This document shows positions 20,661 through 58,341 of a stretch of 64,000 bases of DNA, piece after piece. The notes beneath the pieces are model-generated. The model saw only the letters and a list, made by a program, of their open reading frames with translations. It did not search any database and had not been told where the DNA came from. Source of the stretch: Gemmatimonadales bacterium (GTDB lineage: Bacteria; Gemmatimonadota; Gemmatimonadetes; Gemmatimonadales; GWC2-71-9). The position numbers and the translations under genes were made by a program. The stretch's first letter is position 1. The number at the start of each line of letters is the position of its first letter. Location: positions 983 to 64,982 of the forward strand of contig DATEGE010000005.1 in the NCBI GenBank assembly GCA_035280265.1. The letters are read 5' to 3'.

Positions 20661-21651
20661 GCGCTAGCGCCTCCTCCACGATCCGCTCGATGAAGTCCTC
20701 GTAGCCCAGCCCCGCCTTCTCCGCCGCGTCGGCCATCTCGTTCTCGTAGGCGAGGAACGGATTGGGATTTACCTCGAGGACGTATACTTCGTCGTCGTGC
20801 GTCAGCCGCAGATCGACTCGCCCGTAGTCCTGGAGCCAGAGGGCGTGAAACGCCGTGGTGCACGCGTCGGCGATCTTCGCGGTGACGGGGTCCGAGAGCC
20901 CTTTCGCAAACACGTTCTTGATCTTCTTGCGCTTGCGGTACTCTTCGTCCCATTTGGCCTTGTAGGTGGCGATGCGGTGATCGCCCTCCGTTTCCCCGAA
21001 CGTCAGCTCCACGATCGGCAGCACCTGCAGGGCACCGTTCCCGATCAGCCCGACGTACAATTCACGTCCCTCGATCAGCTCCTCCACGATCGCGGCCTGG
21101 CCGAACTTTTCGTGAATGAATTTCACCCGCGCCCCCAGGTCTTCATCCTCCCCGACCACCGAGGCTTGCGAGATTCCCACCGATGCATCCTCGAGGAGCG
21201 GCTTGACGATGAGCGGGAAGCGCAGCTCCGACGGGCGTACCGGCTTTTCGCCGGGACGAAACTCCGCGAAGGCGGGGACCCGGATCCCGTGGTGCGCCAG
21301 GATCTTCTTGGCGAGCGACTTGTTCCGCGCCACCAGCAGCCCCGTCGGCGAGGAGCCCGTGTACAGGTAGCCATGCATTTCGAGCACGGTGGCGAGGGCG
21401 TACTCGTGCCTGGCGTGACCGCGGAACGATTCACAGCTGTTGAACACCAGCTTGGGCTGAAACGCAGCGAGCCGCTCCAGTACGGGTGCTAACTGCTCGG
21501 CGACGCCGACCATCAGGAGGTCGTGTCCTTTCGCGAGCAGTGCCCGGGCCACGTCGTACTCGGCCTCCTCGACCTTCGCGGCGACTTCCTTCTTGTAATC
21601 GGCGTCCTCCCAGTCGGGATGGAGCGTGTCGAAGACGACGGCGATCTTCAC
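20647..21651 (-). CDS. ATP-grasp ligase of the D-alanine--D-alanine ligase-like family (probably not the housekeeping Ddl)
   Basis: GTG 21651 is preceded by GGAGGGG. The ATP-grasp core is present (FPLIVKPLLEDASVGI, AIVEELIEGRELYVGLIG, VLEVNPNP). The N-terminus lacks the GGxSxE-type signature I associate with true Ddl. It overlaps the downstream gene by 14 nt. Confidence 0.75.
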   Translation of the reverse strand: MKIAVVFDTLHPDWEDADYKKEVAAKVEEAEYDVARALLAKGHDLLMVGVAEQLAPVLERLAAFQPKLVFNSCESFRGHARHEYALATVLEMHGYLYTGSSPTGLLVARNKSLAKKILAHHGIRVPAFAEFRPGEKPVRPSELRFPLIVKPLLEDASVGISQASVVGEDEDLGARVKFIHEKFGQAAIVEELIEGRELYVGLIGNGALQVLPIVELTFGETEGDHRIATYKAKWDEEYRKRKKIKNVFAKGLSDPVTAKIADACTTAFHALWLQDYGRVDLRLTHDDEVYVLEVNPNPFLAYENEMADAAEKAGLGYEDFIERIVEEALARGPA

Positions 21652-21671
21652 CGCCCTGCCCCTCCACCCCC

Positions 21672-21773
21672 AACGCGGAACGCGGAGCGCGGAACGCGGA
21701 ACTGATGAAGGAGGTCGCGTGCCGAGAGACGCACGCTCTGCTGTTCCGCGTTCCGCATTCCGACTTCCGCGTT
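21672..21773. repeat. Long imperfect hairpin whose arms are inverted arrays of 7-bp tandem repeats (GCGGAAC)
   Basis: The left arm is 21672-21702 (aacgcggaacgcggagcgcggaacgcggaac). The right arm is 21743-21773 (gttccgcgttccgcattccgacttccgcgtt). By my alignment 27 of 31 positions are complementary. The 40-nt loop contains a small palindrome gcgtgc-n8-gcacgc (21717-21736). Confidence 0.85.
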
Positions 21774-23212
21774 CATCCTTTGACCCGCTGCATATCCCGC
21801 CCCACCGTCGTGAGTGCAATGAGGATCACCAGCCCTCCCACCGCCCCCGCTGTGGGGAGCAACAGCATGGCAGGCCGCAAGCCGAACCGGTCGGACAGAT
21901 AGCCGATGAGCGGCGGAGCGATCGCATCGCCCGCGAGGTGGGAGTACAGGACGAAGGCGCCGAGCACCGACGCCCGCACGGCGGGCGGGACGACGTCCAG
22001 GATCACCGCCGACAGCGGCCCGTTGTACCAGGAATAGAGGAAGAACGTCGTGAACAGCAGGGGAACGAACAGCCGCAACTCGTCAATGAGGAGCAGCGCC
22101 GCGCACACCGGCCCGCCCAGCACGAAGCCCGCGCCCGACACGACGACCCGCCCACCGCTCCAGCGCGCCAGCAGCCAGTCCCCGGTGCGCCCACCGAACA
22201 ACGCGCCCAGGGCGCCGCCCGCGAGCCCCCACACGCCAAAGTGGCGTCCGACCGTTGCGACTGGCAGGCCGTGCGTGCGCTCCAGAAAACTCGGCGCCCA
22301 GGCGATCAGGCCATTGACCGCGAAGGTAACGAGCGCCCCGCCGACGAACATCCAGATCAAGGTGGGCGTGCGCAGGACGGTGCCGGCCGCCACCAGGAAG
22401 TCGCTGAGCGCGCTGGCGGCCACCTCCCCGGCTTCGCTGGTGCCCCGCACGGCCACGGGGACCAGCCGGACGACCGTCCAGACGATGCCGACGCTCACAC
22501 ACGCGGCGAACACGGCTGTGTCGACGCCCGGCGGCAGGCCCTGAAACAGATCGAGCGCGCCGCTGACCACGGCCCCGGCGACCGTCAACCAGATCAGCGG
22601 CGCGCCGAGCACTAAGGCTTGCCGCAGCCGCAGGCGTCCCCGATCGAGCCAGCTTTCCACCGACGCCCGGATCGTGGGCGGCGGTCGGCGGCGGGGCTCG
22701 CGTAACCGGGACGCGAGGAGCGCCAGCACGAAGCCCGGAGCGCCCAGCGCGACGAACGCCGCCCGCCAGCCGTAGCGCTGGGCGAGCACCCCGCCCAACC
22801 AGATGCCGAGCACGCCGCCGAACGCCATCCCCACGGAGTAGATGCCGATCGCGAACGCACGACGTTTGCCCGGGAAGAATTCCGCGATGAGGGCCTGGGC
22901 CGCGGGGCCGTAGCCCGCCTCCCCGACGCCGACCAGCGCACGGCAAAACATCAGGTGCCAGAAGCGCTGCACCGTCGCCCCGAGCGCCGTGAACACACTC
23001 CACAGCCCGACGCCCGCGGCGATCACGGCGCGGCGCGATTTCAGGTCCCCGAGCACGCCGAGGGGAAGGGCGGCGAGCGACAAGACGATCACGTACGCAG
23101 AGCCCAGCCACCCGAGCTGCTGATCGGACAGCGTGAGCTGGCGCTTGATCGGCTCGAACAGAGCGAAGACGACGTTGCGGTCCGTGTAATTGAGGAGGTT
23201 GATCAGCGTCAA
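21773..23212 (-). CDS. MFS transporter (Spinster-like type)
   Basis: 479-aa ORF from TTG 23212 (LINLLNYTDRNVVFALFEPIKRQL..., about 12 hydrophobic segments). That start would truncate the first helix. The in-frame upstream sequence reads ...SRAYAAYALGLL with no ATG/GTG/TTG. A CTG at 23317 lies behind an AGGAGG and is a candidate true start. Confidence 0.8.
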   Translation of the reverse strand: MTLINLLNYTDRNVVFALFEPIKRQLTLSDQQLGWLGSAYVIVLSLAALPLGVLGDLKSRRAVIAAGVGLWSVFTALGATVQRFWHLMFCRALVGVGEAGYGPAAQALIAEFFPGKRRAFAIGIYSVGMAFGGVLGIWLGGVLAQRYGWRAAFVALGAPGFVLALLASRLREPRRRPPPTIRASVESWLDRGRLRLRQALVLGAPLIWLTVAGAVVSGALDLFQGLPPGVDTAVFAACVSVGIVWTVVRLVPVAVRGTSEAGEVAASALSDFLVAAGTVLRTPTLIWMFVGGALVTFAVNGLIAWAPSFLERTHGLPVATVGRHFGVWGLAGGALGALFGGRTGDWLLARWSGGRVVVSGAGFVLGGPVCAALLLIDELRLFVPLLFTTFFLYSWYNGPLSAVILDVVPPAVRASVLGAFVLYSHLAGDAIAPPLIGYLSDRFGLRPAMLLLPTAGAVGGLVILIALTTVGRDMQRVKG

Positions 23213-23267
23213 CAGGCCCAGAGCGTAGGCAGCGTACGCTCTGGATGTACCAGCGAGCTCGTCGACC

Positions 23268-24407
23268 TTAGGGCCGCCGTCCGACAGTCGTCGCCTCCGC
23301 GCGCGCGTCGCGCTCAGCCTTCGCCTCCTGATACGCGGCGGTGAGCTGCCGCATCATCTCGTCACGCCGGTCGTACAGACGTTTGAGCCGCCGCTTGGTT
23401 CGCTTGGCGAGGGCGTACGCAGCGAGAATCGGGAAGCCGACGGTGTTGTCGAGGTAGCACACGACCGTCCCCGGGAGCTGGTCGGGGTCCACCTTTCCCC
23501 AGCTCACGGCTTCCGCGGGCGTGGCGCCCGACAGTCCGCCCGTGTCGGGGCGGGCATCGGTGAGTTGGAGATAATAGTCGTGGCCCTTTTCGCTGATCCC
23601 CAGGACTTCCTGAATCTGCGGCTCGGTCTGGAGCACGAAGTTCTTCGGACTGCCTCCGCCGATGATCAAGACGCCGCTCTTCCCGGCGTGCGTCTTGGCA
23701 TCGAACACGATGGCCGACGTCTCGTTCACGTCGGCGCTGGGATCGAAGCGCAGGCGCGACCCCGTGAGCGCTTGTTCGGCGACGTTCATGCCGATGGAGG
23801 AGTCTCCCGGTGACGAGGTATAGATCGGTACGGCGCACTGATGCGCCACCCCCAGCACCGACTTGCGAGAGATGCCGAGGGTCCGTTCGCGCTCCAGGAT
23901 ATAGCCGCCGAGGAGGTAGTGGTACTCCGCGGTGCTCATCGACCGCTGGAACTCCGCGCTCGCCGACACCTGCCGGATGTAGGCGTCAGTGGAGAGCAGC
24001 ACCTCGTAATCGAAGAAGATGTCGTAGATGCGGACGACGCCTTCCTGGCGCAGCTCCACATCGTCCGCGAACGGTGTCCCGCGATGCATCGCGAGTCCCA
24101 GCCCGAAGTGGGCGTCGTGGTAGAGGTTGGCGCCGGTGGAGACGATCCAATCGATGAACCCCGCCTCGAGGAGCGGAATGATCGTGGACATGCCCAGGCC
24201 CGCGGGCGTCATGGCGCCGGTGAGACTCATGCCTACGGTGACGTCGTCTGCGAGCATCCGCTCGCTGAACAGGCGGCAGCCCTCAGCGAGGCGGCCCGCG
24301 TTGTAGGCGAGAAACGCGTTGTCCACCAGCTCCGGCACGGTCTCTCGCCCGGTGACGGGCTTTGGGTCGATGCGCTGACCGCGCAGGAAGTCCTTGCGAG
24401 TGCTCAT
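23268..24407 (-). CDS. Deoxyhypusine synthase-like protein
   Basis: 379-aa [43 protein letters not shown] and GGGSPKNF match the deoxyhypusine synthase family. Confidence 0.8.
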
Positions 24408-24414
24408 GGGGGCC

Positions 24415-25161
24415 TCAGTCGCGGTTATCCTCCAGCGGATACCCCTGGGTGCGCCGCTCGCGCGCCTGGCGCACGAGCGCGACGGCTTCGCGCGGACTGT
24501 CCGTGACAGTGAAGAGCGCCAGATCGGTCGCGGCGATCTTGCCCTCGCCAGCCACGCGATCCCGCAGCCAATCCGCTAACCCGCGCCAGTAGGGCTCGCC
24601 GAACAGGATCACGGGGAAGTGCTTGACCTTCCCGGTCTGAATCAGCGTCAGGGCTTCGAACAGCTCGTCCATGGTGCCGTAGCCGCCGGGGAAGACGATG
24701 AACGCCGTGGAGTACTTCACGAACATCGTCTTGCGGACGAAGAAGTAGCGGAAGTTGATCGCGCGCTCGACGAAGGGGTTCAGCCCCTGCTCGAACGGGA
24801 GCTCGATGTTGCAGCCGATCGAGAGTCCGTTGCCCTCCTGGCAGCCGCGGTTCGCCGCTTCCATGATTCCGGGGCCGCCGCCCGTGATGATGGGAAACCC
24901 TTCCCGCGCCAATAACCGCGCGGTCTCCACGGCCTTCTCGTAGTAGGGGTCTTCGGGCGTGGTCCGTGCCGAGCCGAACACGGTGACCGCGTTGTACACG
25001 TCCGAGAGAGTATCGAATCCTTCGACGAACTCCCCCATGATGCGCAACACGCGCCAAGAGTCTGTCCGGGTGAACGCCCGCCGCTCCCGCGGGACCTGAG
25101 CGAGGAGCTGTTCGTCCTCAGTGACCGGCGGGCGTGGCGAGCCGCTGTAGCGCTGAGACAT
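24415..25161 (-). CDS. LOG family protein (TIGR00730-type, nucleotide 5'-monophosphate nucleosidase / cytokinin riboside 5'-monophosphate phosphoribohydrolase-like)
   Basis: [31 protein letters not shown] and [15 protein letters not shown] are the family signatures. The start is ATG 25161 (AGGA 5 nt upstream) or ATG 25167. The track start (25317) is over-extended. Confidence 0.85.
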
Positions 25162-26299
25162 GGTCATCCTGCACGTTATAGAAGAAGGGAGAGAGGCGAA
25201 CGTGGCCGGGCCGGGCGTCCGCGATGATGCCGGCGTCGGCGAGATGGCGCACCGACCCTGCCGGGTCGGCCACGGGCAGGAGCACGATCGCCGAGCGCTC
25301 GGCGAGGCGCGACGCAACCTTGGGCCGGAAGCCGAGTTCCCGCGCCCGACCGATCAGATCCTCAGTGAGCTCCGCGCTGACCCGCCGGATCACCGGGACA
25401 CCGATTTCCTCGATGTAATCGAGTCCCCCCAGCTGGGCGTACACCGCCGCGAGGGATGGAGTGCCGAGTTCGAAGCGGCGCGCGTCGTCATGAAGCTCCA
25501 GGGTGCGCGGGTCGAACGCGAACTGGTCGCGGTGCCCGAACCAGCCGGCGATGGTGGGCGTCAGCCGTCGCGCCAACTCCGCACGGACGTACAGGAACAC
25601 GATCCCCGATCCCCCGAGCAGCCATTTGAGGCCGCCGGCCGTGAGGAAGTCCACGTCGGCCGCCCGCACGTCCACGGGGATTTGCCCCACCGCCTGGTAG
25701 GCGTCGATCAGGCAAAGCGCGCCCTTGGCGTGAGCGGCGGCGGCGACGGACCGGATGTCCTGGATCGCTCCGCTCGTGAAGTACACGTGCGACGTCGCTA
25801 CGAGGGCGGTACGCTCGTCCACCGCCCGCACGATCGCCTCGACCGGCACGGACACCTGGTCGGGGCTCTCGACCACCACCAGCTCCACGCCGCGCGGCCG
25901 CTTGGCGAGCCATTGGTAGGCGACCGTCGGGAAGTCGAGTGATGTGATCACGACTCGTGGGCGCGCGCGATAATCCAGCGCCTCGGCCACGGCAGAGATC
26001 GCCACGGAAATGCTCGGCGCGAGCGCGATGTCATCCGCCGCGGCGTGAATCAGCCGGGCGTAGCGCTGCCGCAGCTCGCCTAACGCCGCCCACCACACGT
26101 CGTACCACGCGGCCGCTCCCCGAGCTTGCCACATGTCGAGGAACTGCGCGACGCGTGCGCGGGTGCGCTCGCCGAGCGCTCCCAGCGAACAGGTGTTAAG
26201 GTAGACGCGGCCCCGGAAGATGGGAAATTCATCGCGGTATCGGGCGAGCGCGTGACCTCCGGCGCGCGTGGCGGCTTCGCGGCCGCTGGCAAGCGTCAT
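25118..26299 (-). CDS. Class V aminotransferase-fold PLP-dependent enzyme
   Basis: 393-aa ORF. It has FPIFRGRVYLNTCSLG at the N-terminus and a probable PLP-lysine context in FLTAGGLKWLLGG. The substrate is unknown. Confidence 0.75.
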   Translation of the reverse strand: MTLASGREAATRAGGHALARYRDEFPIFRGRVYLNTCSLGALGERTRARVAQFLDMWQARGAAAWYDVWWAALGELRQRYARLIHAAADDIALAPSISVAISAVAEALDYRARPRVVITSLDFPTVAYQWLAKRPRGVELVVVESPDQVSVPVEAIVRAVDERTALVATSHVYFTSGAIQDIRSVAAAAHAKGALCLIDAYQAVGQIPVDVRAADVDFLTAGGLKWLLGGSGIVFLYVRAELARRLTPTIAGWFGHRDQFAFDPRTLELHDDARRFELGTPSLAAVYAQLGGLDYIEEIGVPVIRRVSAELTEDLIGRARELGFRPKVASRLAERSAIVLLPVADPAGSVRHLADAGIIADARPGHVRLSPFFYNVQDDHVSALQRLATPAGH

Positions 26300-27888: not shown

Positions 27889-28759
27889 CCGTCAAGCGGA
27901 TCAGCGTCAGCTCGGGGGGGTTGCGCCAGCGCGGGATCCACGCGCTTCCCACTCCGGCGGAAACGTACAGCCACGTCTGCCCCACCCGCTTCAATCCATG
28001 CAGATACTTCCGCCCGAACTGTGAAGGAACAGTGACCGGTCCGATGACCGGCAGGTGGGCCTGGCCGTTGTGGGTATGCCCCGACAACATCGCGTCCACG
28101 CGCAGGCCCGCCGGCAGGTACTCGATCAAGTCGGGGTTGTGAGACACGAGCACGCGAGGAACGTCTTCCGGCACGCGGGCGAAGGCCTCATCCGGCCGAA
28201 CGGCGCCGTGCGTGAAGTCGTCGACGCCGCCTACGGCGAGCACCGCGCTGCCGCGTCGGATCACACGGTGCTGATTGACGAGCACGGCCGCCCCACCCCG
28301 CTCCACCGCGGCGGCGACAGCGTCCGGCTCTATCCAATGGTCGTGATTTCCGAGCACCGCCACCACACCGTCCGGCGCGCGGAACCGCCCGACCACGGTC
28401 TCCAACCCCTCGAGGTCGCTCCGGGCGTGACTTACGAAGTCACCGCCCAGCACCACGAGGTCCGGTGCGAGCGCGGTAGCCCGGTCCGCGACGCGCGCCA
28501 GCCACCGAGCCGGGACGGCGGGACCGTGATGCAGGTCCGTGACCAGCGCGATCCTGTACCCGACCAGTGCGGCGCCAAGCCCCTGAAGCGGCAGCGTCAC
28601 CTCAGGCGTTTCGAGCGGGACGACGTCCCAGCGGTGCAGCCGTGCGGCCAACCGCTCCGCCAGCCACCCCAGCCGCATCTCGAAGAATCGCTCGAACAGC
28701 GGGAGCCGCCGTTCCCGCGCGGGCGGACGGCGGCGCGGGTGGAGCAGCGGCCCGATCAC
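27881..28759 (-). CDS. Metallophosphoesterase (calcineurin-like)
   Basis: Motifs: IALVTDLHHG, VVLGGDFVSH, LGNHDHW and SGHTHNGQ. Its GTG start forms a GTGA overlap with the upstream stop. Confidence 0.85.
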   Translation of the reverse strand: MIGPLLHPRRRPPARERRLPLFERFFEMRLGWLAERLAARLHRWDVVPLETPEVTLPLQGLGAALVGYRIALVTDLHHGPAVPARWLARVADRATALAPDLVVLGGDFVSHARSDLEGLETVVGRFRAPDGVVAVLGNHDHWIEPDAVAAAVERGGAAVLVNQHRVIRRGSAVLAVGGVDDFTHGAVRPDEAFARVPEDVPRVLVSHNPDLIEYLPAGLRVDAMLSGHTHNGQAHLPVIGPVTVPSQFGRKYLHGLKRVGQTWLYVSAGVGSAWIPRWRNPPELTLIRLTAT

Positions 28760-30246
28760 TTCGCGGCGACGCGCGACACTACGTCGTACACGAAGTGCAC
28801 GCCGAACGTGAGGTTGTCGAGGCTCACGCGCTCATCGTTACCGTGCACGCCGCGCGACTCCGCCTGGTTGAGGGCGAACGGCGACAACCCGTAGCTCACG
28901 ATGCCCAAGCGCCGGAAATAGTGACTGTCGGTGAAGCCGGCGAGCGGGGTGGTGGTGACGACCGTGTTGGGGGTCCGCTCATGAGCCACGGACACGATTG
29001 CTCGGAACAGCTCCGTGTCGGTCGGGCTTTCCGTCGCGGGCCAGTTCGGCCCCTCGGGCGTGATCGCGACGGCCGAGTCTCCCACGACGCGCACCAAGTC
29101 CGCCAGGAACGCTTGCGGGTCCTGTCCGGGCAGGAGCCGCACGTCGAGCGCCGCGCGCGCCACCGGCGGGATTACGTTCGTCTTGTCGCTGCCCTGCAGG
29201 CCAGTGATGGAAATGGTGTTGCGCAGCAGCGCGTTGTACGTGAGGTCGCCCGTGAGGGCGCGCGCCCCCGCCGTGTCTCGCAGCGCCATGCGCACGTCCG
29301 CGAGCCAGGCGCGCCGTACGGGATCGGGCTCGATCGTGGAGAGGTCGCGCAGATAGCGCTCCACCGCCGGTGTCACGATCAACGGCGTCTGATACGAGGC
29401 GATCCGGTTCAAGGCCCGGATCAAGCGGTGAACCGGATTGTCCGGGGTCGGGCGGGAGCCGTGACCCGCGGTCCCGCGTGCCGTCACGTCCAGCCAGAAC
29501 GGCGACTTTTCCGTCGTCCCCACGCCGTAATACTCGATCCGGCCATTCGCATCGGCCCGGATCGTGCCGCCTTCGTTCAGCAAGAATTCGGCGTTCTCCA
29601 GCAGTTCCGGGTGGTTCTGCGCGAACCACCCGGCCCCGACGCCACCCCCGATCTCCTCATCCGCAGTCGCGAGGAAGATCACGTCGCGCTTGAGCGCGAC
29701 CCGAGCGCGCTTGAGCGTGAGCAGCGTCATGAGCTGCGTGATGGCCTCCCCCTTCATGTCGAGGGCGCCGCGTCCCCAGATGTACCCGTCCCGCTCCACG
29801 CCGCTGAACGGGTCGACCGTCCAGTACTCGGGACTCGCCAGCACGACATCCATATGGTTGAGCAGAATGAGGGGCCGGCCGCTGCCGTCACCCTGGAGGC
29901 GAGCGTACAGGTTCGCCTTCCCAGGCTTGGGCTCGAACAGCTGCGACGCGATCCCGTCGCGCGCCAGCACCGCCTGGAGCCACGTCGCTGCCTTCAGCTC
30001 GTTGCCGGGGGGATTCGTGGTGTTAATCGCGATGTACTGCGACAAGAGCGCCGCCGCCTCATGGCCGACGTTGCGCCATTGAGCGTCGGTGCGCGGCACC
30101 TCCGGCTCGAATTGCCGGGGGGGCAGCATCACGGATTGCGAGGAAGGGCCGAACAGGCCGGGCTGTGCGGGGGGCGCTGCGGCGCGAGGGGAGTGCGCAC
30201 AGGAAACCGCGAAGAGCAACGCCAGGGGCGGGCAGGTCCAACGCAC
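28756..30246 (-). CDS. M20/M25/M40 family peptidase, secreted or lipoprotein
   Basis: GTG 30246 is preceded by GGAGGA. The signal is VRWTCPPLALLFAVSC. Motifs: LLNHMDVV, GRGALDMKG and ATADEEIGG. The track ORF upstream part (to 30498) is unlikely. Confidence 0.85.
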   Translation of the reverse strand: MRWTCPPLALLFAVSCAHSPRAAAPPAQPGLFGPSSQSVMLPPRQFEPEVPRTDAQWRNVGHEAAALLSQYIAINTTNPPGNELKAATWLQAVLARDGIASQLFEPKPGKANLYARLQGDGSGRPLILLNHMDVVLASPEYWTVDPFSGVERDGYIWGRGALDMKGEAITQLMTLLTLKRARVALKRDVIFLATADEEIGGGVGAGWFAQNHPELLENAEFLLNEGGTIRADANGRIEYYGVGTTEKSPFWLDVTARGTAGHGSRPTPDNPVHRLIRALNRIASYQTPLIVTPAVERYLRDLSTIEPDPVRRAWLADVRMALRDTAGARALTGDLTYNALLRNTISITGLQGSDKTNVIPPVARAALDVRLLPGQDPQAFLADLVRVVGDSAVAITPEGPNWPATESPTDTELFRAIVSVAHERTPNTVVTTTPLAGFTDSHYFRRLGIVSYGLSPFALNQAESRGVHGNDERVSLDNLTFGVHFVYDVVSRVAAK

Positions 30247-30313
30247 GAGTCCTCCGGACGGAAGCGGGGACTCGCAAGCTATCGGGGGGCCCGCCGTAGA
30301 GCGAGCCCCGGCG

Positions 30314-31717
30314 TCAATGCACGGTGATCGTCGCCTGCCCAGTCTTTCCTTGGCTCGTCGCGAATATGGTAGCGGTTCCGGGGGCGCGACCGAGCGCACG
30401 ATCACCACTGCAGGCGCCGCAGGGGTACACAAAGACCACCGTGCTGTCGGAGGAAGACCACGATGCGTTGGCGCCGAGATCGTGCCCGGCCGAATCACGT
30501 ATCACCGCTTGGAGGAAAACGCCGCTGTCTCCCACCGCTACCGTCGCGCTCTCGGGCACGATGGTCACTTTGGCAACCGTGCCGAGGATCACGACGTGGA
30601 CGGCAAGCGAGTCCGTCACGCCGCGACTCGTCGCGTAGATCGTGGCCACGCCGACCTGGCGCCCCGTGACCATAGCCTCAACGGTGTCAGTCGGCGCGGT
30701 GACCACCGCCACGTCCGTGTCACTGCTCGTCCAAGTGATTTTCGAATTGGGAGCAAAATTGCCGCTCGAATCCCAGACTGCAGCATACAGCCAGATGGTC
30801 CCTCCCACACCGACTTGGGTCTGCCCACTGATGTGGATGGAGGCGTGTCCGCCGCCGGCTCGAGGGAGCGACGCCGATAGGGTCGTTGTTCCCCCCGCCG
30901 ACACCTGCACGTGCGGCGTGACCACAGTGGCCAGCCACGGCATGAAGGGCTCCTCGATCTTCACGAAGTATTGACCAGGGGGCAGAAACGCGACCTTGTA
31001 ATCCCCTGAGGAATCGCTACGCCCCGTGGCCTCGAGGTAGCCGATGCTGTCGGGCCGGCCCGGATATGTTGCGAACACCGAGACCTGCGCGTTCGGGACG
31101 GGACCCCCTGAGCTTTGCGTCACCGTCCCGGCGATCGCGCCTGCGGCCGCCGAATTGATCGCCCGCAGGTTGGGAGTGAAATCGAACGCATAGTCGCCGG
31201 AATAATTGAACAGGAAGCTGCGCCCGATATCGAAGTCGAGCACGATGTCCGCGCCGGTCGTGGCCACGTCGACCGGATACTCGACGAACGCGTAGATCGT
31301 TGACCAGCCGTGCCAGTTCACGTGCGCCGGTGTTTGGGCAGCGTCGTTCCAGTTGATCGAGGACTGGGTGGTGTCGATGGTCATCCGGACCGCGTGGTAT
31401 TGACCCGCCGGCATTTCCCCCTGTCCCAGGAGGGCCGTTGTGCCCTGCTGCAGGGCGAGGAGGTCGAAGGCCTTCCGGGGCTCCGTGATCAGCACCCAGG
31501 GCCCGCTCCCGCTCGTGTCCTGGTTGGCGCTGGCTTCGATCCGCACGACGTAGATGGACACGCTGTGGAGTGAATCGTATGGGAAGGGAGCGTCGGTGAG
31601 CCGTACTGTGATGATGGGCTGCACCTTGGGGTACGCCGGCATCGTGTCGTCCTGGTAGCAGCCCACCGCGTACAGCGCGACCGCCAAGAACCCGATGAAT
31701 GCGGCACGTGTCGACAT
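30314..31717 (-). CDS. Lipoprotein with a DUF4382-like N-domain, a carboxypeptidase-regulatory-like domain and two Big_2 Ig-like domains
   Basis: ATG 31717 (MSTRAAFIGFLAVALYAVGC lipobox). LTDAPFPYDSLHSVSIYVVRIE...AGQYHAVRMTI is DUF4382-like. AIAGTVTQSSGGPVPNAQVSVF...DYKVAFLPPGQYFVKI is CarboxypepD_reg-like. The C-terminal repeats (VATIYATSRGVTDSLAVHV, TATIFATSQGKTGQATITV) are Big_2-like. Confidence 0.7.
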   Translation of the reverse strand: MSTRAAFIGFLAVALYAVGCYQDDTMPAYPKVQPIITVRLTDAPFPYDSLHSVSIYVVRIEASANQDTSGSGPWVLITEPRKAFDLLALQQGTTALLGQGEMPAGQYHAVRMTIDTTQSSINWNDAAQTPAHVNWHGWSTIYAFVEYPVDVATTGADIVLDFDIGRSFLFNYSGDYAFDFTPNLRAINSAAAGAIAGTVTQSSGGPVPNAQVSVFATYPGRPDSIGYLEATGRSDSSGDYKVAFLPPGQYFVKIEEPFMPWLATVVTPHVQVSAGGTTTLSASLPRAGGGHASIHISGQTQVGVGGTIWLYAAVWDSSGNFAPNSKITWTSSDTDVAVVTAPTDTVEAMVTGRQVGVATIYATSRGVTDSLAVHVVILGTVAKVTIVPESATVAVGDSGVFLQAVIRDSAGHDLGANASWSSSDSTVVFVYPCGACSGDRALGRAPGTATIFATSQGKTGQATITVH

Positions 31718-49310: not shown

Positions 49311-50726
<1,416 letters not shown>

Positions 50727-50745: not shown

Positions 50746-53250
50746 TCACGGACCGCGCTTGACGAAAAACTCGTAGGATGTCGTGCCGAGGCCGTAGCCG
50801 TAGATACGCGCGCGAATTATGAACCGCCCACTCGCCGGTACCGTGAACGAACCCACCGGGTAGAACGAGCTGCCGAAGACGGCGGTGTTGCTCCCCACCA
50901 GCGACGTGCCAGGTGCCGGATCGATTGCCTCCAGGACTATAGCGCTGTCGACAGAAGAAGTGACTGTGAGTCGATCGTACAGAGTGAGCTGCTCGCCCGG
51001 TGTCCCTGACGAGGTGAACTCATCGATGTCGCCGCCAGGGAAAATCGCTTCCCCTCGCACCGTGTCACCAACCGTGTACACCGCAGGGACGGTCTCGGGA
51101 GCGCGTTTGACGGGGACGACCTTGAACCAGTACGGACCAATTGGACCCGTGACGCGTAAGCCGACCACGCCTGTTGGAGGGAGAGCTAAGAGGCCGATGT
51201 CCTCTCGGGGCAGCGAGTCCTGCGTGGTCGTATCGTAGACCACCAGCCGCATCCCGTCCTGGGCGAAAACTGCGAACTCGGCCCCCGGCGTGCCCGTGAG
51301 CACGAACTCGTCCATGTCGTCCGGGTAGTCGATGCGCTCAGAACCGACGGAGTCTCCAAGGGCGACCTGGCGGGCGGCGGTTTCAGGTCTTGCGTCGAAC
51401 GGCAGGATGGCGAACCGGTACGGGCCGACCTCGGTGATGGAGTGCCCCTGTTGCCCCGGATAGATCGACACGCGGTACCAGCCGTCCGCGGCGATATCCA
51501 GCCGCGATGTACGAGTGCTGTCGAGCGATGACGAAGCCGTGGGTATGACCAGGCCGCGGAGCTGGATCGATCCATCTGGGGGTTGGATGCTCAGAGCGAA
51601 GTAGCCGTTGCCCGCGACGCCCAAGCCTTGCAGCTGGGCCACGACGTGCTGCCCCTTCCGCGCGTAGAAGACAAAGTTGTCCCAATCACCCGGCACATCG
51701 AGGGACTCCCCGGTCACCGTGTCGCCCAGCACCAGGGTGTCGCGCGTGTGTTCCGGCCTGCTCGAGATCACGTACGTGTGCACTCGATACGGACCCTTGT
51801 AGCCCGAACTGCCCCCGTTGGCGCACACGTTGAGCCGGTGGGTTCCAGACGCAATCGGGAACGTGCCAGTGCTCAAGACGAGCGGCGAGCCAGGCGGGGC
51901 CCCCTCGCAAAACTCTGCGTCCAGCTCGGCCAAGGGCCCGTTGCTCGGGCTGCCCGCGGGATCCCGCCAGGTGAAAATGTTGGCGAGACCACTCTCCGGG
52001 ACGGTCAGGGTGTACTCGTCGATGTCTCCCAAGACGTCGATCGATTCCGCGACGCTGTCGCCGAGTGTCAGGGTCGGTGGCGCTCGCTCGGGGCGGCGAT
52101 CGATGGGATAGACCTGAAAGCGATACGGCCCACGATCGCCGGCGGAGTCGGGGGACACGCCGCTCACGCGGACGGTGTAGGTCCCCGATGTGGGCAGCGC
52201 GAACCGCCCCGTTGCATGATCGCTCATGCTGGTGTCCGTCCCCACGCTCGCCACCACCAGGCCGTTGACCGTCAGCAGCAGCTCGTCCTTGGAGTCGCCG
52301 CTCATCGCCTGGAAGAAAACATTCAGCAGCTGGCCCGCCGCTCCCGTAAAATGGAACTCGTCGATGTCGCCGATCGGGGAAATCCTCTCACGCACCGTGT
52401 CCCCGATTGCAATCGTACTCGATCCCACCTCCGGCCCGGAACTCCACGGCACAACCGCCAAACGGTAAGGGCCATCGTAGTTATGCTTACTCACGTCGTC
52501 ACGTTGCGAGCTGACCGTGAGTCGATAATCCCTCGTGGCCGGTAGCACGATCAGGCCGCTCGTTTGACCATCGAGTGTTGAGTCGCCCCCCGCACTCCTG
52601 ACCACCCCCAGACGAAAGCCTGCAACCGAGTCGAGGACGGCTCGGATTATCCCAGAATTCGCAGGGCCTTCCGCTTGAAGAGTCAGAACCACTGTCTGAC
52701 CCGCCTGGCCTGCGAAGGTAAACTGGTCCAGGTCTGCAATCGTCTCTAAGATTTCGCTCTTCACCGTGTCCCCCTCGTTCATTCTCGGGGACACGGACTC
52801 CGGTGATGGGTTCACACGCTGGATGAGGAATTTGAACGAGCCCTCGCGGAGGAAGAGCTTGTCGACGAAAATCTCCATCTTACTGGCGACGTGGGCGTGA
52901 AATGCCTCGGTCCCATCCTTGAGCAGTGGAAGACCGGGGCGACTCACCACCCTGCCCAGCGGGGTCGTGAACCCGGTGTAGCCGACGCGCAACTCGAACG
53001 CTCCTGGGGCATTGGTCGGCGCCTGCTGGAAGAAGACCGCGTAATAGACGTCTGCCGGCGTCTCGAAGACATAGACGAGGGTATCGGAGGACAGGCCGAT
53101 CTGCCCAGAGACCGTGTCGCCCACGGCAACCCGAATCGCCTTTCGGTTGTCCGGGCCAATCACGTCGCTGCATGCCTGCCACACGGTCCAGGCAAACGCC
53201 CCCGCGAGGGCGGAACGGAAGACGGTTGGCCTGGTGAACCGGAAAGCCAT
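50746..53250 (-). CDS. Large secreted protein built from seven tandem PPC-like (pre-peptidase C-terminal-type) modules
   Basis: 834-aa ORF with signal MAFRFTRPTVFRSALAGAFAWTVWQAC. Seven modules of roughly 105-115 aa each carry GD[TS]V...GD[IM]DE[FY]... and end in GPYRFxVxPxxxRPE. The domain assignment is tentative. Confidence 0.7.
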   Translation of the reverse strand: MAFRFTRPTVFRSALAGAFAWTVWQACSDVIGPDNRKAIRVAVGDTVSGQIGLSSDTLVYVFETPADVYYAVFFQQAPTNAPGAFELRVGYTGFTTPLGRVVSRPGLPLLKDGTEAFHAHVASKMEIFVDKLFLREGSFKFLIQRVNPSPESVSPRMNEGDTVKSEILETIADLDQFTFAGQAGQTVVLTLQAEGPANSGIIRAVLDSVAGFRLGVVRSAGGDSTLDGQTSGLIVLPATRDYRLTVSSQRDDVSKHNYDGPYRLAVVPWSSGPEVGSSTIAIGDTVRERISPIGDIDEFHFTGAAGQLLNVFFQAMSGDSKDELLLTVNGLVVASVGTDTSMSDHATGRFALPTSGTYTVRVSGVSPDSAGDRGPYRFQVYPIDRRPERAPPTLTLGDSVAESIDVLGDIDEYTLTVPESGLANIFTWRDPAGSPSNGPLAELDAEFCEGAPPGSPLVLSTGTFPIASGTHRLNVCANGGSSGYKGPYRVHTYVISSRPEHTRDTLVLGDTVTGESLDVPGDWDNFVFYARKGQHVVAQLQGLGVAGNGYFALSIQPPDGSIQLRGLVIPTASSSLDSTRTSRLDIAADGWYRVSIYPGQQGHSITEVGPYRFAILPFDARPETAARQVALGDSVGSERIDYPDDMDEFVLTGTPGAEFAVFAQDGMRLVVYDTTTQDSLPREDIGLLALPPTGVVGLRVTGPIGPYWFKVVPVKRAPETVPAVYTVGDTVRGEAIFPGGDIDEFTSSGTPGEQLTLYDRLTVTSSVDSAIVLEAIDPAPGTSLVGSNTAVFGSSFYPVGSFTVPASGRFIIRARIYGYGLGTTSYEFFVKRGP

Positions 53251-53418: not shown

Positions 53419-55884
53419 ATGGCCTCGTCCATCGTTCTGAAATTCGGCGGCACTTCGGTCGGTGACGCGGCCGCCTTCGAGCGCGTCGAGCGCATCGTTC
53501 GCTCCCACGGCGGGCCCCGCCCGGTGGTCGTGGTCTCCGCCATGAGCGGGATGACGGACGCGCTGCTCGCCGCCCTGAACGCCGCCGCCGCCGCCGGACC
53601 CGTCAATGCGCTCAACGGCCTGCGTCCCCTGCTCGAGCGACCCCGCGCGGTAGCCCGGCGGCTGCTCGCTTCCGACGCCGCTACAAACTTCCAGACCTAC
53701 CTCGACGGCACCGAGCGCGCCCTCACGGAGGTGCTGGAACGGATCGAACGGACCCCCGTCGCACGCCCCGCGCTGTACGACGAGGGCGTGGCATTCGGCG
53801 AGCAGCTCGCCGCCACGCTCCTCACCGCCGTGCTCGCCGCGCGCGGCCTCCCCGCCCGGTACGTGGATGCGCGCCGCTGCGTCGTGACGGACGAGACTCA
53901 CGGCGCCGCCGTTCCGCTGCAGCCCGACACCGAGCGGCGCACCCGTGATGAGCTGGGCCCGGTGCTCGAGCGCGGGATGGTCCCGGTCCTGGGGGGCTAC
54001 ATCGCCGCGACGCGGAGCGGGGTCACCGCCACGCTCGGCCGCGGCGGATCCGACTACTCCGCCGCGCTCGTCGGGGCCGCGCTCGGCGCCGCGGAGATCC
54101 AGATCTGGACCGACGTGAGCGGCGTGCTCACCGCCGATCCGCGTATCGTAAAGGGCGCCCGGACCATTCCGCGCCTTTCGTACGCGGAGGCCGCCGAGCT
54201 CGCTTACTTCGGGGCGAAGGTCCTGCATCCGCGCACGATCCAGCCGGCGCTCGACCGGCGCATCCCGGTGCGCATCTGTAACTCGCACGCCCCCGACGAC
54301 CCTGGTACGCTGGTGACCGCCGAGGCGGACATCTGGCCCGAGACGGTGAAGGCAATCGCGCACAAGCGGGGGGTCACGATCGTGCAAGTCACGTCCGCGC
54401 GCATGCTCGGCGCCTACGGGTTCCTGCGCTCCTTGTTCGAGGTGTTCGACCGGCACCGGACGGCGGTGGACGTCGTCGCCACCTCGGAGGTCAGCGTGTC
54501 GCTCTCCGTGGAGGAGGGCGCAACGCTGCCGCCGATTCTCGAAGAGCTGCGGCGGCTGGGCGAGGTGCGGGTGGAGCCGCACCGGGCCATCGTGTGCGTG
54601 GTGGGCGAGGGGCTGCGCCGCACACCCGGGATCGCGGCGCGCCTGTTCGATACGATCCGCGACATCAACGTGCTGCTCATCTCACAGGGCGCGTCGCAAG
54701 TGAATCTCACTTTCGTTGTGGAAGAGGCGCAGGTCGCCGAGGCCGTGGCGCGGCTCCACGCCGCCCTGCTGGAGCGCGAAGGGGCGTCGGCCCCGGTGGC
54801 CGCGGCGGGGCCCGTGGCCCGGCCACGGGCTGGCGCCGTCCCCGACGTGTTCACGCTGGCGCGCCGCCTGATCGACATTCCATCCGTCTCCGGAGACGAG
54901 GCCGGCATGGCCCGCTTCCTCGCGGGCTACTTGGGCGACCTCGGCTACCGCGTGGCGCTGACGGACGCCGTCCCCGGCCGGCCCAACCTGCTCGCCACCA
55001 CAGGTGCTCCCCCCCGCGTTGTGCTCTGCACTCACCTCGATACGGTGCCTCCCTTCATTGGGTCACAGGAAGAAGGAGACGCGATCGCCGGGCGCGGGGC
55101 GTGTGACTCCAAGGGCATCCTCGCTGCCCAGATAGCCGCCGCCGAGCGCCTGCGGGGGGAAGGCATTGCCGAGCTGGGCTTGCTGTTCGTGGTGGACGAG
55201 GAGATGGGCAGCCTCGGCGCCCGCGCCGCGAACGCGCACCCACGCGCGCGCGAGTGCCGCTACGTGATCGTGGGCGAGCCCACGGACAATAAGCTGGCCG
55301 TGGGCTGCAAAGGGTCGCTGCGCGTGGCGCTCTGCACCGAAGGCACGGGCGGCCATTCGGCCTACCCCGAGCGCGGCACATCGGCCATCGACGCCTTGCT
55401 CGATGTCCTCACCGACGTGCGCGCGTGCAGTTGGCCGCGCGATGGGTTCTTCGGAGACACCACCGTCAACATCGGCATCATCGGTGGCGGCACGCGGACC
55501 AACCTGCTCGCCACGGAGGCCCGCGCCGATCTGCATTTCCGATTGGTCGGCGACGCCGCCGTCGTGGAGCAGATGCTCGCGCGCACCGTGGCCGGGAGGG
55601 CCCGGGTCGAGTCCTTGAGCCTCACGCCCCCGGTCCGACTGTTGGGCATGCCAGGGTTCGAGCCGTGCGTCGTGGGGTTCACGACCGACACCGCCCATCT
55701 CGGGCACTGGGGGACGCCGCTGCTGCTCGGACCGGGATCGATCCTCGACGCCCACACGGCACACGAGCGTATCGCGAAGGCCGAGCTCGCCCGCGGCGTG
55801 GACTTGTACGTCCAGCTGGTTCGCTCGCTCCTCGCCGAGCCGGCCGCGGGCCAGCGGGGCGCGCTGGCGGGAGTGCGGGCGTGA
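53419..55884 (+). CDS. lysC: Fusion protein: aspartate kinase (N-terminal about 470 aa, with ACT domains) joined to an M20 ArgE/DapE-type deacylase (C-terminal about 350 aa)
   Basis: The N-terminal part has MASSIVLKFGGTSVGD, VVVVSAMSGMTDALL, LGRGGSDYSAALVGAAL and ACT-like VCVVGEGLRRTPGIAARLF. The C-terminal part has CTHLDTVPP, GRGACDSKG, LFVVDEEMGS, VGEPT and GGHSAYPERG. Confidence 0.8.
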   Translation: MASSIVLKFGGTSVGDAAAFERVERIVRSHGGPRPVVVVSAMSGMTDALLAALNAAAAAGPVNALNGLRPLLERPRAVARRLLASDAATNFQTYLDGTERALTEVLERIERTPVARPALYDEGVAFGEQLAATLLTAVLAARGLPARYVDARRCVVTDETHGAAVPLQPDTERRTRDELGPVLERGMVPVLGGYIAATRSGVTATLGRGGSDYSAALVGAALGAAEIQIWTDVSGVLTADPRIVKGARTIPRLSYAEAAELAYFGAKVLHPRTIQPALDRRIPVRICNSHAPDDPGTLVTAEADIWPETVKAIAHKRGVTIVQVTSARMLGAYGFLRSLFEVFDRHRTAVDVVATSEVSVSLSVEEGATLPPILEELRRLGEVRVEPHRAIVCVVGEGLRRTPGIAARLFDTIRDINVLLISQGASQVNLTFVVEEAQVAEAVARLHAALLEREGASAPVAAAGPVARPRAGAVPDVFTLARRLIDIPSVSGDEAGMARFLAGYLGDLGYRVALTDAVPGRPNLLATTGAPPRVVLCTHLDTVPPFIGSQEEGDAIAGRGACDSKGILAAQIAAAERLRGEGIAELGLLFVVDEEMGSLGARAANAHPRARECRYVIVGEPTDNKLAVGCKGSLRVALCTEGTGGHSAYPERGTSAIDALLDVLTDVRACSWPRDGFFGDTTVNIGIIGGGTRTNLLATEARADLHFRLVGDAAVVEQMLARTVAGRARVESLSLTPPVRLLGMPGFEPCVVGFTTDTAHLGHWGTPLLLGPGSILDAHTAHERIAKAELARGVDLYVQLVRSLLAEPAAGQRGALAGVRA

Positions 55885-56582
55885 GACTCGCGCTATTTGG
55901 ACGGGGCGGCATGGGGCGCGTCGTGGCCGAGCGGGCCACGGCCGCGGGGCTCGAGGTCGGAACGGTATTCACGTCGGCCGACGCCGGCCGCAACGGCGAT
56001 CAACTGGCCGCCCTGCTGCGCGGCCACGACGTGGCAATCGACTTCTCGACCGCCGAAGCGGTGCTTCGCGACGCCACGGCGTGCGCGCGGGCCGGCGTGC
56101 CGCTGGTCGAGGGGACCACGGGTTGGCGTGATCGCGAAGCGGAAGTGCGCGCGGCGGTGGAGCAGGGCGGGAGTGCCCTGGTGTACGGCCCGAATTTCTC
56201 CATCGGTGCGAACCTGTTCTATCGCCTCGCGACGCGCGCGGCGGAACTGTTCCGCGCATTCGGGGACTACGAGCCGTTCATCGAAGAGGCACACCACGCG
56301 ACGAAGCGCGACGCCCCTTCGGGAACCGCCCTGCGGTTGCGCGACCTCGTCGCCCCCGGCCGAGCGATCTCCGTCGCGAGCACCCGCGCGGGGCATATTC
56401 CCGGTACCCATCGCGTGGGGTTCGACTCAGTCGCTGATCAGATCGTGCTCGAGCACGCCGCCCGCTCACGCGACGGCTTTGCGGCCGGGGCGCTCGTCGC
56501 GGCACACTGGATCATGGGACGCAGGGGAGTGTTTACGTTCGACGAGGTGATGGACGACATGCTCGCGACCGTCAGGCGCTGA
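55881..56582 (+). CDS. dapB: 4-hydroxy-tetrahydrodipicolinate reductase
   Basis: GTG 55881 forms a GTGA overlap with the upstream stop. MRLALFGRGGMGRVV...DFSTAEAV...VEGTTGW...SIGANLF...EAHHATKRDAPSGTAL. The track start (55425) is over-extended. Confidence 0.85.
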   Translation: MRLALFGRGGMGRVVAERATAAGLEVGTVFTSADAGRNGDQLAALLRGHDVAIDFSTAEAVLRDATACARAGVPLVEGTTGWRDREAEVRAAVEQGGSALVYGPNFSIGANLFYRLATRAAELFRAFGDYEPFIEEAHHATKRDAPSGTALRLRDLVAPGRAISVASTRAGHIPGTHRVGFDSVADQIVLEHAARSRDGFAAGALVAAHWIMGRRGVFTFDEVMDDMLATVRR

Positions 56583-56603
56583 GCAGGAACGAGGAGCACG
56601 CAG

Positions 56604-57521
56604 ATGCGCGTGGACTGGCTACGCGGCGGCGCGACCGCGCTCGTCACCCCCTTCGCGGCTGACGGATCGGTGGACGATGTGCGCCTGGGGGCGCTGGTCG
56701 AGCGCCAGATCTCGGGCGGCATCCGCGTGCTCGTGCCTTGTGGCACCACCGGCGAGAGCGCCACCCTCACCGCGGAGGAGCAGCGCCGCGTGATCGCGCT
56801 GACGATCGACGCGGCGCGGGGCCGGGCGCGAGTCCTCGCCGGCGCTGGCGGCAACGCGACCGCCGCCGCGGTGGAGCGTGCGCAGGCCGCGCGTGCGGCG
56901 GGCGCGGACGGCGTCCTGGTCGTCGCGCCCTACTACAACAAACCCACCCAGGCGGGGTTGATCGCGCATTTCCGCGCGGTCGCCGCCGCCGTGCCCGGCC
57001 TTCCGGTAGTCCTTTACAACGTTCCTGGACGCACCGGCTCGAACATCGACGCTCCCACGGTGCTCGCCCTGGCGCGGGAGACGGAAAACATCGTCGCCGT
57101 GAAGGAGGCGTCCGGGAACTTCTCGCAGATCATGGCGCTGCTGCGCGAACGACCGGAGGGATTCCGCGTGCTGTCGGGCGACGATGCCCTCACCCTGCCA
57201 CTCATGGTGCTCGGCGCGGACGGCATCGTATCGGTGGTCTCGAACGAGGTACCGGATCTCCTATCCCGCCTCGCCGACGCGGCGCTCGCGGGCCGCTGGG
57301 AGGACGCCCGCACGCTGCACAACCGACTGCTGCCGCTGATGGAGGCCAACTTCATCGAATCGAACCCCGGTCCCGTCAAGGCCGCGCTGGCGCTGATGGG
57401 CCTCCTCGAAGAGCGCTTTCGGCTCCCCCTCGTCCCGGTCCAGGAGAAAACGCGAGCACGTCTCCGCGACGTGCTCCAGGAACTCGGAGTCCTCGGTCGC
57501 GCCGCGCATGTCGCTGCGTGA
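56604..57521 (+). CDS. dapA: 4-hydroxy-tetrahydrodipicolinate synthase
   Basis: The SD GAGGAG is present. Motifs: [35 protein letters not shown] and VAVKEASGN. Confidence 0.9.
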
Positions 57522-58341
57522 GCGAATCGAAGGGCTCGCCGCGGCGCAACGCTCTACATACGACGACGCCGACCGCGCGCTGTTCACCGAATTCCGCGCT
57601 GCGCTGACGAAGGGCGCGGTGCGCGCCGCCGAGCGGACCGCTGGTGGCGAGTGGCGCGCGAACGCATGGGTGAAGCAGGGAATACTGCTCGGGTTCCGCA
57701 TGGGTGTGCTGACCGACATGTCGGTCGACACTACGCTGCGCTTCTTCGACAAGGACACCTATCCGGTGCGGCCTACCGCCCTCGCCGATAGCGTCCGCAT
57801 CGTGCCGGGAGGCTCGAGCATTCGCGACGGGAGCTACATGGCTCCTGGTGTGGTCTGCATGCCCCCGATGTATGTGAACGTCGGCGCATACGTGGACGAG
57901 GGGACCCTGATCGATAGCCATGCGCTCGTCGGCTCGTGCGCGCAGATCGGGAAACGCGTCCACCTGTCCGCTGCCGCGCAGGTGGGTGGGGTGCTCGAGC
58001 CGGTCGGCGCCGTCCCGGTCGTCATCGAAGATGACGTGCTCGTGGGCGGTGGCAGCGGAATCTACGAGGGGACCGTGGTGCGCGAGCACGCCGTGCTCGC
58101 GGCGGGGACGATCCTCACCGGCTCGACGCCGCTGTACGACCTGGTCCGCAACCAGGTGTACCGCCGGGCGAGCGGCCGACCCCTCGAGGTGCCGGCCGGC
58201 GCGGTCGTAGTACCGGGAGCACGTGCACTGCGTGAGGGCACGGGGGCGGAATGGGGACTCTCGCTGTACGCCCCGGTGATCGTGAAATACCGCGACGACC
58301 GTACCGACCTGGCGACCCAGCTGGAAGAGTACCTGCGGTGA
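57508..58341 (+). CDS. dapD: 2,3,4,5-tetrahydropyridine-2,6-dicarboxylate N-succinyltransferase
   Basis: It overlaps dapA by 14 nt. Motifs: [11 protein letters not shown] and the hexapeptide-repeat region [43 protein letters not shown]. Confidence 0.85.

Follow-up and report, generated by a model that had tools for sequence, protein, structure and literature searches.

We describe here a gene of a Gemmatimonadales bacterium that joins, in a single polypeptide, an aspartate kinase (AK) of the LysC type to an M20 deacylase, and we consider it likely that it encodes a bifunctional enzyme of the lysine pathway whose M20 half carries out the putative DapE step. The gene lies at 53419..55884 (+) in the window, that is, the whole 64-kb stretch of contig DATEGE010000005.1 (GCA_035280265.1, a metagenome-assembled genome) that was analysed; our reading of genomic DNA covers this window and the 10-kb flanks of its relatives. 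It starts with ATG and forms one 821-amino-acid (aa) open reading frame (ORF), a putative bifunctional LysC-DapE according to the ORF list, Pfam and NCBIfam, in which Pfam places AA_kinase at aa 5-288, ACT_9 at aa 392-449, Peptidase_M20 at aa 536-802 and M20_dimer at aa 629-713. The kinase half would make aspartyl phosphate, the first step of the lysine pathway. The M20 half very probably hydrolyses N-succinyl-LL-diaminopimelate (N-succinyl-LL-DAP), a specificity that we infer from genomic context and active-site residues.

The aspartate kinase half, as delimited by NF006570 and Pfam (aa 1-453, 53419..54777 (+)), is made of the AA_kinase domain and of an ACT region at about aa 300-453. An inter-domain linker rich in Ala, Pro and Gly (aa 454-474, 54778..54840 (+)), recognised from the alignment of relatives, from the predicted local distance difference test score (pLDDT) and from the reading of the DNA, leads to the M20 deacylase half (aa 475-806, 54841..55836 (+); PF01546 and PF07687), a putative N-succinyl-LL-diaminopimelate desuccinylase. 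The dimerisation, or lid, domain of the latter (PF07687; 55303-55557 (+)) is inserted in the catalytic domain. The first-pass annotation had already read one 821-aa ORF joining an aspartokinase to a full M20 deacylase, on which the ORF list and Pfam agree, and the motifs that it had singled out are all found in the translation (CTHLDTVPP at aa 537-545, GRGACDSKG at 558-566, DEEMGS at 593-598 and GEPT at 619-622). The Ala/Pro-rich linker, which it had put at about nucleotides (nt) 54800-54840, does lie there, within the slightly longer interval given above. Its kinase with ACT domains is also complete, but ends at about aa 453 in the NF006570 alignment and not at about aa 470.

The fusion is genuine and conserved in Gemmatimonadales, and is not an assembly error. 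Indeed, in more than 100 further fusion clusters, defined at 90% identity, all four Pfam domains lie within a single protein of some 800-830 aa that is 52-100% identical to the window fusion. When 16 Gemmatimonadales fusion proteins are aligned, the linker is the only stretch that varies in both sequence and length; it holds no stop codon at all, and the halves on either side are well conserved. The linker is also predicted to be disordered (pLDDT <50 at aa 452-466) in the full-length AlphaFold2 (AF2) model, a model whose overall pLDDT is 71 and predicted template-modelling score 0.45, whose inter-domain geometry is untrustworthy, and which we used for linker disorder only. A missed stop codon or a frameshift between neighbouring lysC and M20 genes could have produced the same picture in a metagenome-assembled genome such as this one, the more so as unfused relatives carry the two genes merely 14-36 nt apart. 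We regard such an assembly or sequencing artefact, which had been raised together with the first reading, as next to impossible, because the clusters come from independent assemblies (NCBI, JGI, ENA and Logan) and, down to 52% identity, keep one ORF with linkers that differ in length and sequence. Furthermore, open-frame checks of the DNA revealed a single continuous frame across the junction in four relatives (L001, L003, L004 and L005). The GC content at third codon positions of the fusion ORF (0.89) is similar to that of the adjacent genes, and its GC distribution over codon positions fits a real gene.

The fusion is followed by three genes of the DAP pathway on the same strand. Its TGA stop (55882-55884) overlaps the GTG start (55881-55883) of dapB, forming a GTGA that, as a 4-nt overlap, is also present in L001 and L004. 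The dapB gene (55881..56582 (+)) encodes a 4-hydroxy-tetrahydrodipicolinate reductase of 233 aa (TIGR00036, 131 bits vs a cut-off of 122), dapA (56604..57521 (+)) a 4-hydroxy-tetrahydrodipicolinate synthase of 305 aa (TIGR00674, 327 bits vs 206), and dapD (57508..58341 (+)), which overlaps dapA by 14 nt, a tetrahydrodipicolinate N-succinyltransferase of 277 aa (NF008808, 298.5 bits vs 204). The dapD product fails the acetyltransferase model TIGR03532 (93 bits vs 232) and passes the succinyltransferase one. The GTGA overlap, the order dapB, dapA, dapD and the succinylase type of dapD, all read off the letters at the outset, hold by coordinates and by these cut-offs. Promoter and terminator scans gave nothing useful.

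The N-terminal half is, to judge from its sequence, a LysC-type aspartate kinase that is probably inhibited by lysine via its ACT domains. It matches NF006570 (lysine-sensitive aspartokinase 3) with 457.5 bits over aa 3-453, i.e. positions 3-451 of the 452 of the model, and aligns over the full length of E. coli LysC with 36% identity. The KFGGTS and GRGGSD motifs are invariant across the 16 fusions, and the window protein is identical to E. coli LysC at the aligned positions M318, G323, F324, L325, V339, D340, T344, S345, E346 and V347; positions 318-325 and 338-347 of E. coli aspartokinase III (AK III) are those that we take to be involved in lysine binding and feedback resistance. The resemblance to E. 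coli LysC thus extends to the full-length alignment, the AK III equivalog and the presumed lysine site. The window protein differs from it by an extra C-terminal extension of 370 aa and its gene by the lack of an upstream lysine riboswitch: neither this nor any other RNA leader was found 5' of the fusion (Rfam, E<=1, 48-60 kb), the sole match being a thiamine pyrophosphate (TPP) riboswitch before thiC. When the fusion is compared with the bifunctional equivalogs AK-homoserine dehydrogenase (AK-HSD, NF006959) and AK-LysA (NF006515), the kinase part alone matches, below cut-off in both cases (329 vs 726 and 297 vs 802 bits). Relative L003 carries a separate ThrA-like AK-HSD gene 8 kb from the fusion, and the fused kinase therefore looks like a lysine-dedicated isozyme; the second kinase would serve threonine and methionine synthesis.

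Genomic context provides the strongest evidence for a DapE role of the M20 half. A profile of the M20 family was run against 185,579 species genomes; in the 80 best loci, we placed the neighbouring AK, DapB, DapA, DapD, DapC and aspartate-semialdehyde dehydrogenase (asd) genes by tblastn. DAP-pathway genes stand beside the M20 gene in 67 of these 80 loci, and dapB, dapA or dapD in 63. The loci come from Pyrinomonadaceae and other Blastocatellia, Terriglobia, Vicinamibacterales, Gemmatimonadota, Rhodothermales, Lentisphaeria, Udaeobacter and others, with gene orders such as M20-dapB-dapA-dapD, asd-AK-dapB-dapA-dapD-M20 and M20-asd-AK-dapB-dapA-dapD. Close Gemmatimonadales genomes are not among these best 80, which are also the genome listing behind what we say of the spread of the fusion inside Gemmatimonadota. 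In relatives that have the fusion, the order is fusion-dapB-dapA-dapD (L001 and L002), fusion-dapB-dapA-dapD-asd (L004) or fusion-dapB-dapA-dapD-aminotransferase-asd (L003). The last operon contains all functions of the succinylase branch but the hydrolase, which the M20 half would then supply; the DapE function would be the only succinylase-branch hydrolase missing from these dap operons. In three other loci (L058, L068 and L070) we noticed apparent DapD-M20 fusions, which we rejected: the long stretches lie in another reading frame, where they are an artefact of high GC, and the overlap of the two genes is just 4 nt.

An M20 half acting outside the DAP branch, either as an ArgE-like enzyme or by releasing aspartate for the kinase, would require a canonical dapE elsewhere in the genome. 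Its highest NCBIfam score is indeed to an ArgE subfamily (PRK07522, 122 bits), JGI names relatives 'acetylornithine deacetylase', and fusions more often join consecutive steps. However, no arg genes were found beside the M20 gene in the gene-called loci, and the M20 gene stays with dapB-dapA-dapD in loci that lack an adjacent kinase gene (for example L042, L048, L062, L066, L071 and L072), which speaks against a function linked only to the kinase. E. coli ArgE, moreover, has an Asp at a position where the family has a Tyr (see below), and the only other M20 gene of the window (28756-30498 (-)) scores under the cut-off of all DapE models. We thus hold a function outside the DAP branch to be quite improbable. 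The other window gene just mentioned encodes a 580-aa protein that is extended at its N terminus by about 130 aa; it matches best two M20 subfamilies named 'hypothetical protein', PRK09133 (305 vs 349) and PRK07906 (298 vs 382), and it is neither a DapE nor an ArgE equivalog.

A search of 1.84 billion representative proteins placed the M20 half in a large family of short M20 proteins of about 335-350 aa. We propose that it represents a distinct, unnamed subfamily of di-zinc M20 deacylases, about 340 aa in length, and that it would dimerise through its lid domain and remove succinate from N-succinyl-LL-DAP, the product of DapD and the aminotransferase. The metal ligands H539, D563, E595, E620 and H779 and the catalytic E594 are invariant in the 16 fusions and in the 47 family members with which the active site was compared. 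In the closed form of the H. influenzae enzyme (HiDapE), the substrate is contacted by Arg178, Arg258, Gly324 and Thr325, and by His194, Tyr197 and Asn245 of the other subunit (PMC10809365, PMC4012986). Equivalents of His194 (H646), Tyr197 (Y649), Asn245 (N695), Arg258 (R708) and Thr325 (T755) are kept in the window protein. Most of these contact residues are common to ArgE; only the Tyr at position 649, which in DapE contacts the succinate carboxylate, separates the two, being an Asp in E. coli ArgE, yet the sister clade described below has the Tyr too. The proposal that the M20 half is the succinyl-diaminopimelate desuccinylase, first made from the presence of dapD, is supported by the dap context of the 67 loci and by this DapE-type Tyr that ArgE does not have.

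That the M20 half might be inactive, a mere dimerisation or regulatory module for the kinase, is very improbable. Its lid domain is a dimerisation module, and nothing specific favours this possibility beyond that. The five metal ligands, the general-base Glu and the trans His are invariant in the fusions and family members compared, and a shorter fusion of about 615 aa, to which we return below, keeps its M20 domain intact while the ACT domains are gone.

The AF2 model of the M20 half alone reaches a pLDDT of 95.2. Its best template-modelling (TM) scores, 0.84-0.85 with a root-mean-square deviation of about 2.8-3.0 A, are with closed, product-bound DapE (5VO3, 0.85, and 8F8O), and those with ArgE and LysK are 0.78-0.81. 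The fold alone cannot decide the function, because Foldseek gives TM-scores of 0.78-0.85 for DapE, ArgE and LysK alike. Compared with canonical DapE (H. influenzae, N. meningitidis, A. baumannii and E. coli; TIGR01246 and PRK13009; the actinobacterial TIGR01900), the window M20 has the same two-domain fold with a dimerisation lid, the di-zinc ligands and the catalytic Glu, the trans His/Tyr pair and the equivalents of Arg258, Asn245 and Thr325, and it is likewise co-located with dapD. It differs in being about 30 residues shorter, in lacking both the roughly 9-residue loop that follows the first His ligand and an insert in the C-terminal catalytic part, and in falling in its own clade. ArgE and LysK share with it the M20 subfamily fold and similar profile scores. 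They differ from it in context, the window gene having neither arg nor lysW neighbours, in that all their models score it under cut-off, and, for ArgE, in the Asp that replaces Tyr649.

Several observations weigh against a LysC-DapE enzyme and have to be set beside this evidence. On the kinase side, the AK III cut-off is cleared by a narrow margin (457.5 vs 455). At thirteen of the 80 loci, the M20 gene has no dap gene next to it. The M20 half shares no more than 27-28% identity with E. coli DapE, about as much as with E. coli ArgE (26%), and it falls far under every curated DapE cut-off (TIGR01900, 117.6 vs 304.2; PRK13009, 97.4 vs 284; TIGR01246, 76.1 vs 361.8). The ArgE models fail in the same way (TIGR01892, 111.5 vs 297.7; PRK05111, 107 vs 460). 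Its top scores, at about 112-122 bits against cut-offs of 163 to 412, are spread equally over ArgE, LysK, Gram-positive-type DapE and generic ArgE/DapE models, and none of ten standalone family representatives reaches any curated cut-off. The position of HiDapE Arg178 is occupied by Cys or Ser (Cys630 in the window, with Lys631 next to it). Finally, the sister clade of the dap-linked M20 domains consists of M20 domains fused to a HutF-like protein, with good support (195/200) in our neighbour-joining, distance-based tree of M20 domains (200 bootstraps, two outgroups). As for the early concern that the M20 half might group with ArgE or other deacylases, it does not group with canonical ArgE, but not with canonical DapE either, and its family, whose members have about 340 aa, is a separate one.

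These sister proteins are Amidohydro_1-M20 fusions of about 725-846 aa, with six representatives (P0131, P0163, P0222, P0235, P0254 and P0265) whose M20 domains are 36-45% identical to that of the window. In the two members scanned with NCBIfam, the Amidohydro_1 domain scores just below the cut-off for formimidoylglutamate deiminase (HutF; 348.7 vs 362). By pathway logic, their M20 domains probably hydrolyse N-formylglutamate and could replace HutG, the N-formylglutamate deformylase, in histidine degradation. The dap-linked and the HutF-linked clades can be told apart consistently at positions 630, 633, 648, 755 and 772. The family is thus one of N-acyl-amino-acid deacylases of more than one specificity and is not uniformly DapE, so that membership alone does not fix the substrate.

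In the Eubacteriales locus L056 and the Aminicenantales locus L059, the M20 family gene lies between an aminotransferase gene and a DapD-like gene that matches only the hexapeptide-repeat core (residues 97-208, 40-44% identity), and which we read as closer to the DapH acetyltransferase type. The M20 members of these two loci may act on N-acetyl-LL-DAP and not on the succinyl form. The M20 half of the window could in the same manner be a DAP-pathway deacylase with another acyl preference, an N-acetyl-LL-DAP deacetylase or a broad N-acyl-amino-acid deacylase, and the pairing seen in L056 and L059, the N-formylglutamate substrate implied for the HutF-fused clade and the equal scores on ArgE, LysK and DapE models all point in this direction. 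Against this, the window dapD is of the succinyltransferase type, and the M20 half retains the Tyr and the Arg with which DapE binds the carboxylate of succinate. We consider such a preference unlikely, and favour succinyl-DAP as the substrate.

What would a cell gain from linking a LysC-type kinase to a desuccinylase? Five reactions would separate the kinase and DapE steps, and substrate channelling is unlikely because the two are not consecutive. By analogy with other bifunctional aspartokinases, the probable benefit would be a fixed 1:1 co-production and co-localisation of a lysine-specific kinase isozyme with a late enzyme that is specific of the branch. The co-production and co-localisation argument has been made for the AK-homoserine dehydrogenases (ThrA, MetL) and for the AK-LysA of Xanthomonas (PMC1885841). 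Both halves are predicted to be competent for dimerisation, and an oligomer above the dimer is plausible. It is conceivable, although we find it doubtful, that ACT and M20-lid dimerisation together build a lysine-responsive tetramer or polymer, in which lysine bound to the ACT domains would gate both the entry into the pathway and the DapE step, or, in a variant that shares the same low probability, that DapE occupancy would feed back on the kinase. If true, either form would be a new two-point control of DAP and lysine flux.

The unfused relatives indicate how the Gemmatimonadales gene may have originated. Pyrinomonadaceae have the order lysC, M20, dapB, dapA, dapD (dapC), asd, which is that of the window, with lysC and M20 as separate ORFs whose products are 54-62% (AK) and 50-66% (M20) identical to the corresponding halves. 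In the cultured Pyrinomonas methylaliphatogenes K22, the TAA of lysC ends at 7965 and the ATG of the M20 gene is at 7980, leaving a gap of 14 nt; L093 has a second unfused lysC/M20 pair, 36 nt apart. Relatives searched for fused and split genes are therefore fused in Gemmatimonadales and split in Pyrinomonadaceae and L093. Loss of the stop codon and of the spacer between adjacent lysC and M20 genes explains the Gemmatimonadales fusion, which would have arisen when the lysC stop codon and the short spacer disappeared. When the Pyrinomonas, L016 and L064 proteins were looked up among the clusters by exact sequence, no match was found.

A second family of fusions, of about 830 aa and some 80 clusters, is named Longimicrobiales or Gemmatimonadota and has a kinase with two ACT_9 domains. 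These proteins head [fusion]-asd-dapB-dapA-dapD operons (L089, L090 and L091), and their kinase is 52-60% identical to that of Longimicrobiales AK-HSD and 36-39% to the window kinase. The AK-HSD proteins used in this comparison were recovered in the same search, and one of them is named Longimicrobiales. The M20 tree supports the Gemmatimonadales fusions (170/200) and the Longimicrobiales fusions (200/200) as separate groups, and never both together (0/200). The Longimicrobiales fusion is separate from the Gemmatimonadales one and its kinase is of the ThrA type, which points to the duplication of such a kinase and a swap of its partner domain. The linkage of kinase and M20 thus arose at least twice.

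The third architecture is the form of about 615 aa, present in at least 60 Gemmatimonadales clusters (P0382-P0440; L016:2155-4047, L092:10001-11851). It combines an ACT-less AA_kinase of another AK subtype (TIGR00656, 140 bits) with an M20 domain 58% identical to that of the window and heads dapB-dapA-dapD-asd. Its M20 domain is sister to those of the 820-aa fusions (177/200), and it may derive from these or from a separate event; kinase-M20 fusions therefore possibly arose three times in one phylum. The repeated fusion, and the fact that the Longimicrobiales case is not explained by lysC-M20 adjacency, suggest that physical coupling itself is selected.

The architecture is reminiscent of the known bifunctional aspartokinases, AK-HSD (ThrA/MetL; NF006959, NF007003) and the AK-LysA of Xanthomonadaceae (NF006515), in which an N-terminal AK with ACT domains is also fused to a branch-specific enzyme and heads a biosynthetic operon, with a second kinase isozyme in the genome, as in L003 here. 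Xanthomonas LysC-LysA likewise joins the first step to a late, non-consecutive step of lysine synthesis (PMC1885841). In contrast, the partner here is an M20 deacylase and not a dehydrogenase or a decarboxylase dependent on pyridoxal phosphate, and the fusion occurs in Gemmatimonadota, where the kinase-M20 form arose more than once. The first reading had mentioned AK-homoserine dehydrogenase fusions as known and none of this kind, and no account of a kinase-M20 fusion, or of the DapE-like family, turned up in the literature searched. Databases hold the sequences under incomplete names, and current annotation misses the fusion: the NCBI entry identical to the window protein is called 'lysine-sensitive aspartokinase 3 [Gemmatimonadales bacterium]', and the form of about 615 aa is 'M20/M25/M40 family metallo-hydrolase' at NCBI and 'acetylornithine deacetylase' at JGI.

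A few other features of the window deserve mention. The TPP riboswitch (RF00059, 49314-49411 (+), 63.4 bits vs a gathering score of 54.3) extends into the thiC ORF in its longest form, which is listed from 49362 and ends at 50726. In reality thiC probably begins at an ATG near 49401, giving a product of about 441 aa, close to the 442 aa of L001, and its start codon would in that case fall within the 3' end of the aptamer match. Between thiC and the fusion, an 834-aa ORF (50746-53250 (-)) of internally repetitive look gives a weak match to PPC (pre-peptidase C-terminal). At this place L001, which is 88% identical, has a 119-nt spacer, and the local GC content is 0.60-0.65 as against 0.69-0.75 in the lysine operon; the region looks like a genome-specific insertion. 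Further away, a same-strand run (20647-25317 (-)) encodes an ATP-grasp protein (D-Ala-D-Ala ligase C-terminal type), a major facilitator superfamily transporter, a deoxyhypusine-synthase-like protein and a LOG/'lysine decarboxylase'-family protein, and ends beside a class-V aminotransferase gene (25118-26299). It may be a small polyamine or modified-amine cluster.

In conclusion, the gene extends the partners known in bifunctional aspartokinases from two enzymes, homoserine dehydrogenase and LysA, to three, and does so in a poorly studied phylum. DapE is an antibiotic target, and what is known of its diversity stems mostly from Proteobacteria. The Rosetta-stone link provided by the fusion, together with the context of the 67 loci, points to a probable DapE role for an M20 family of about 340 aa whose members are now labelled 'M20/M25/M40 family metallo-hydrolase' or 'acetylornithine deacetylase' and whose fusions are called just 'aspartate kinase'. 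If this role is true, it would fill the DapE gap in reconstructions of the succinylase pathway in Acidobacteriota, Gemmatimonadota and others. The separate kinase-M20 fusions, for their part, offer a natural system for understanding why the first and a late step of a pathway fuse.

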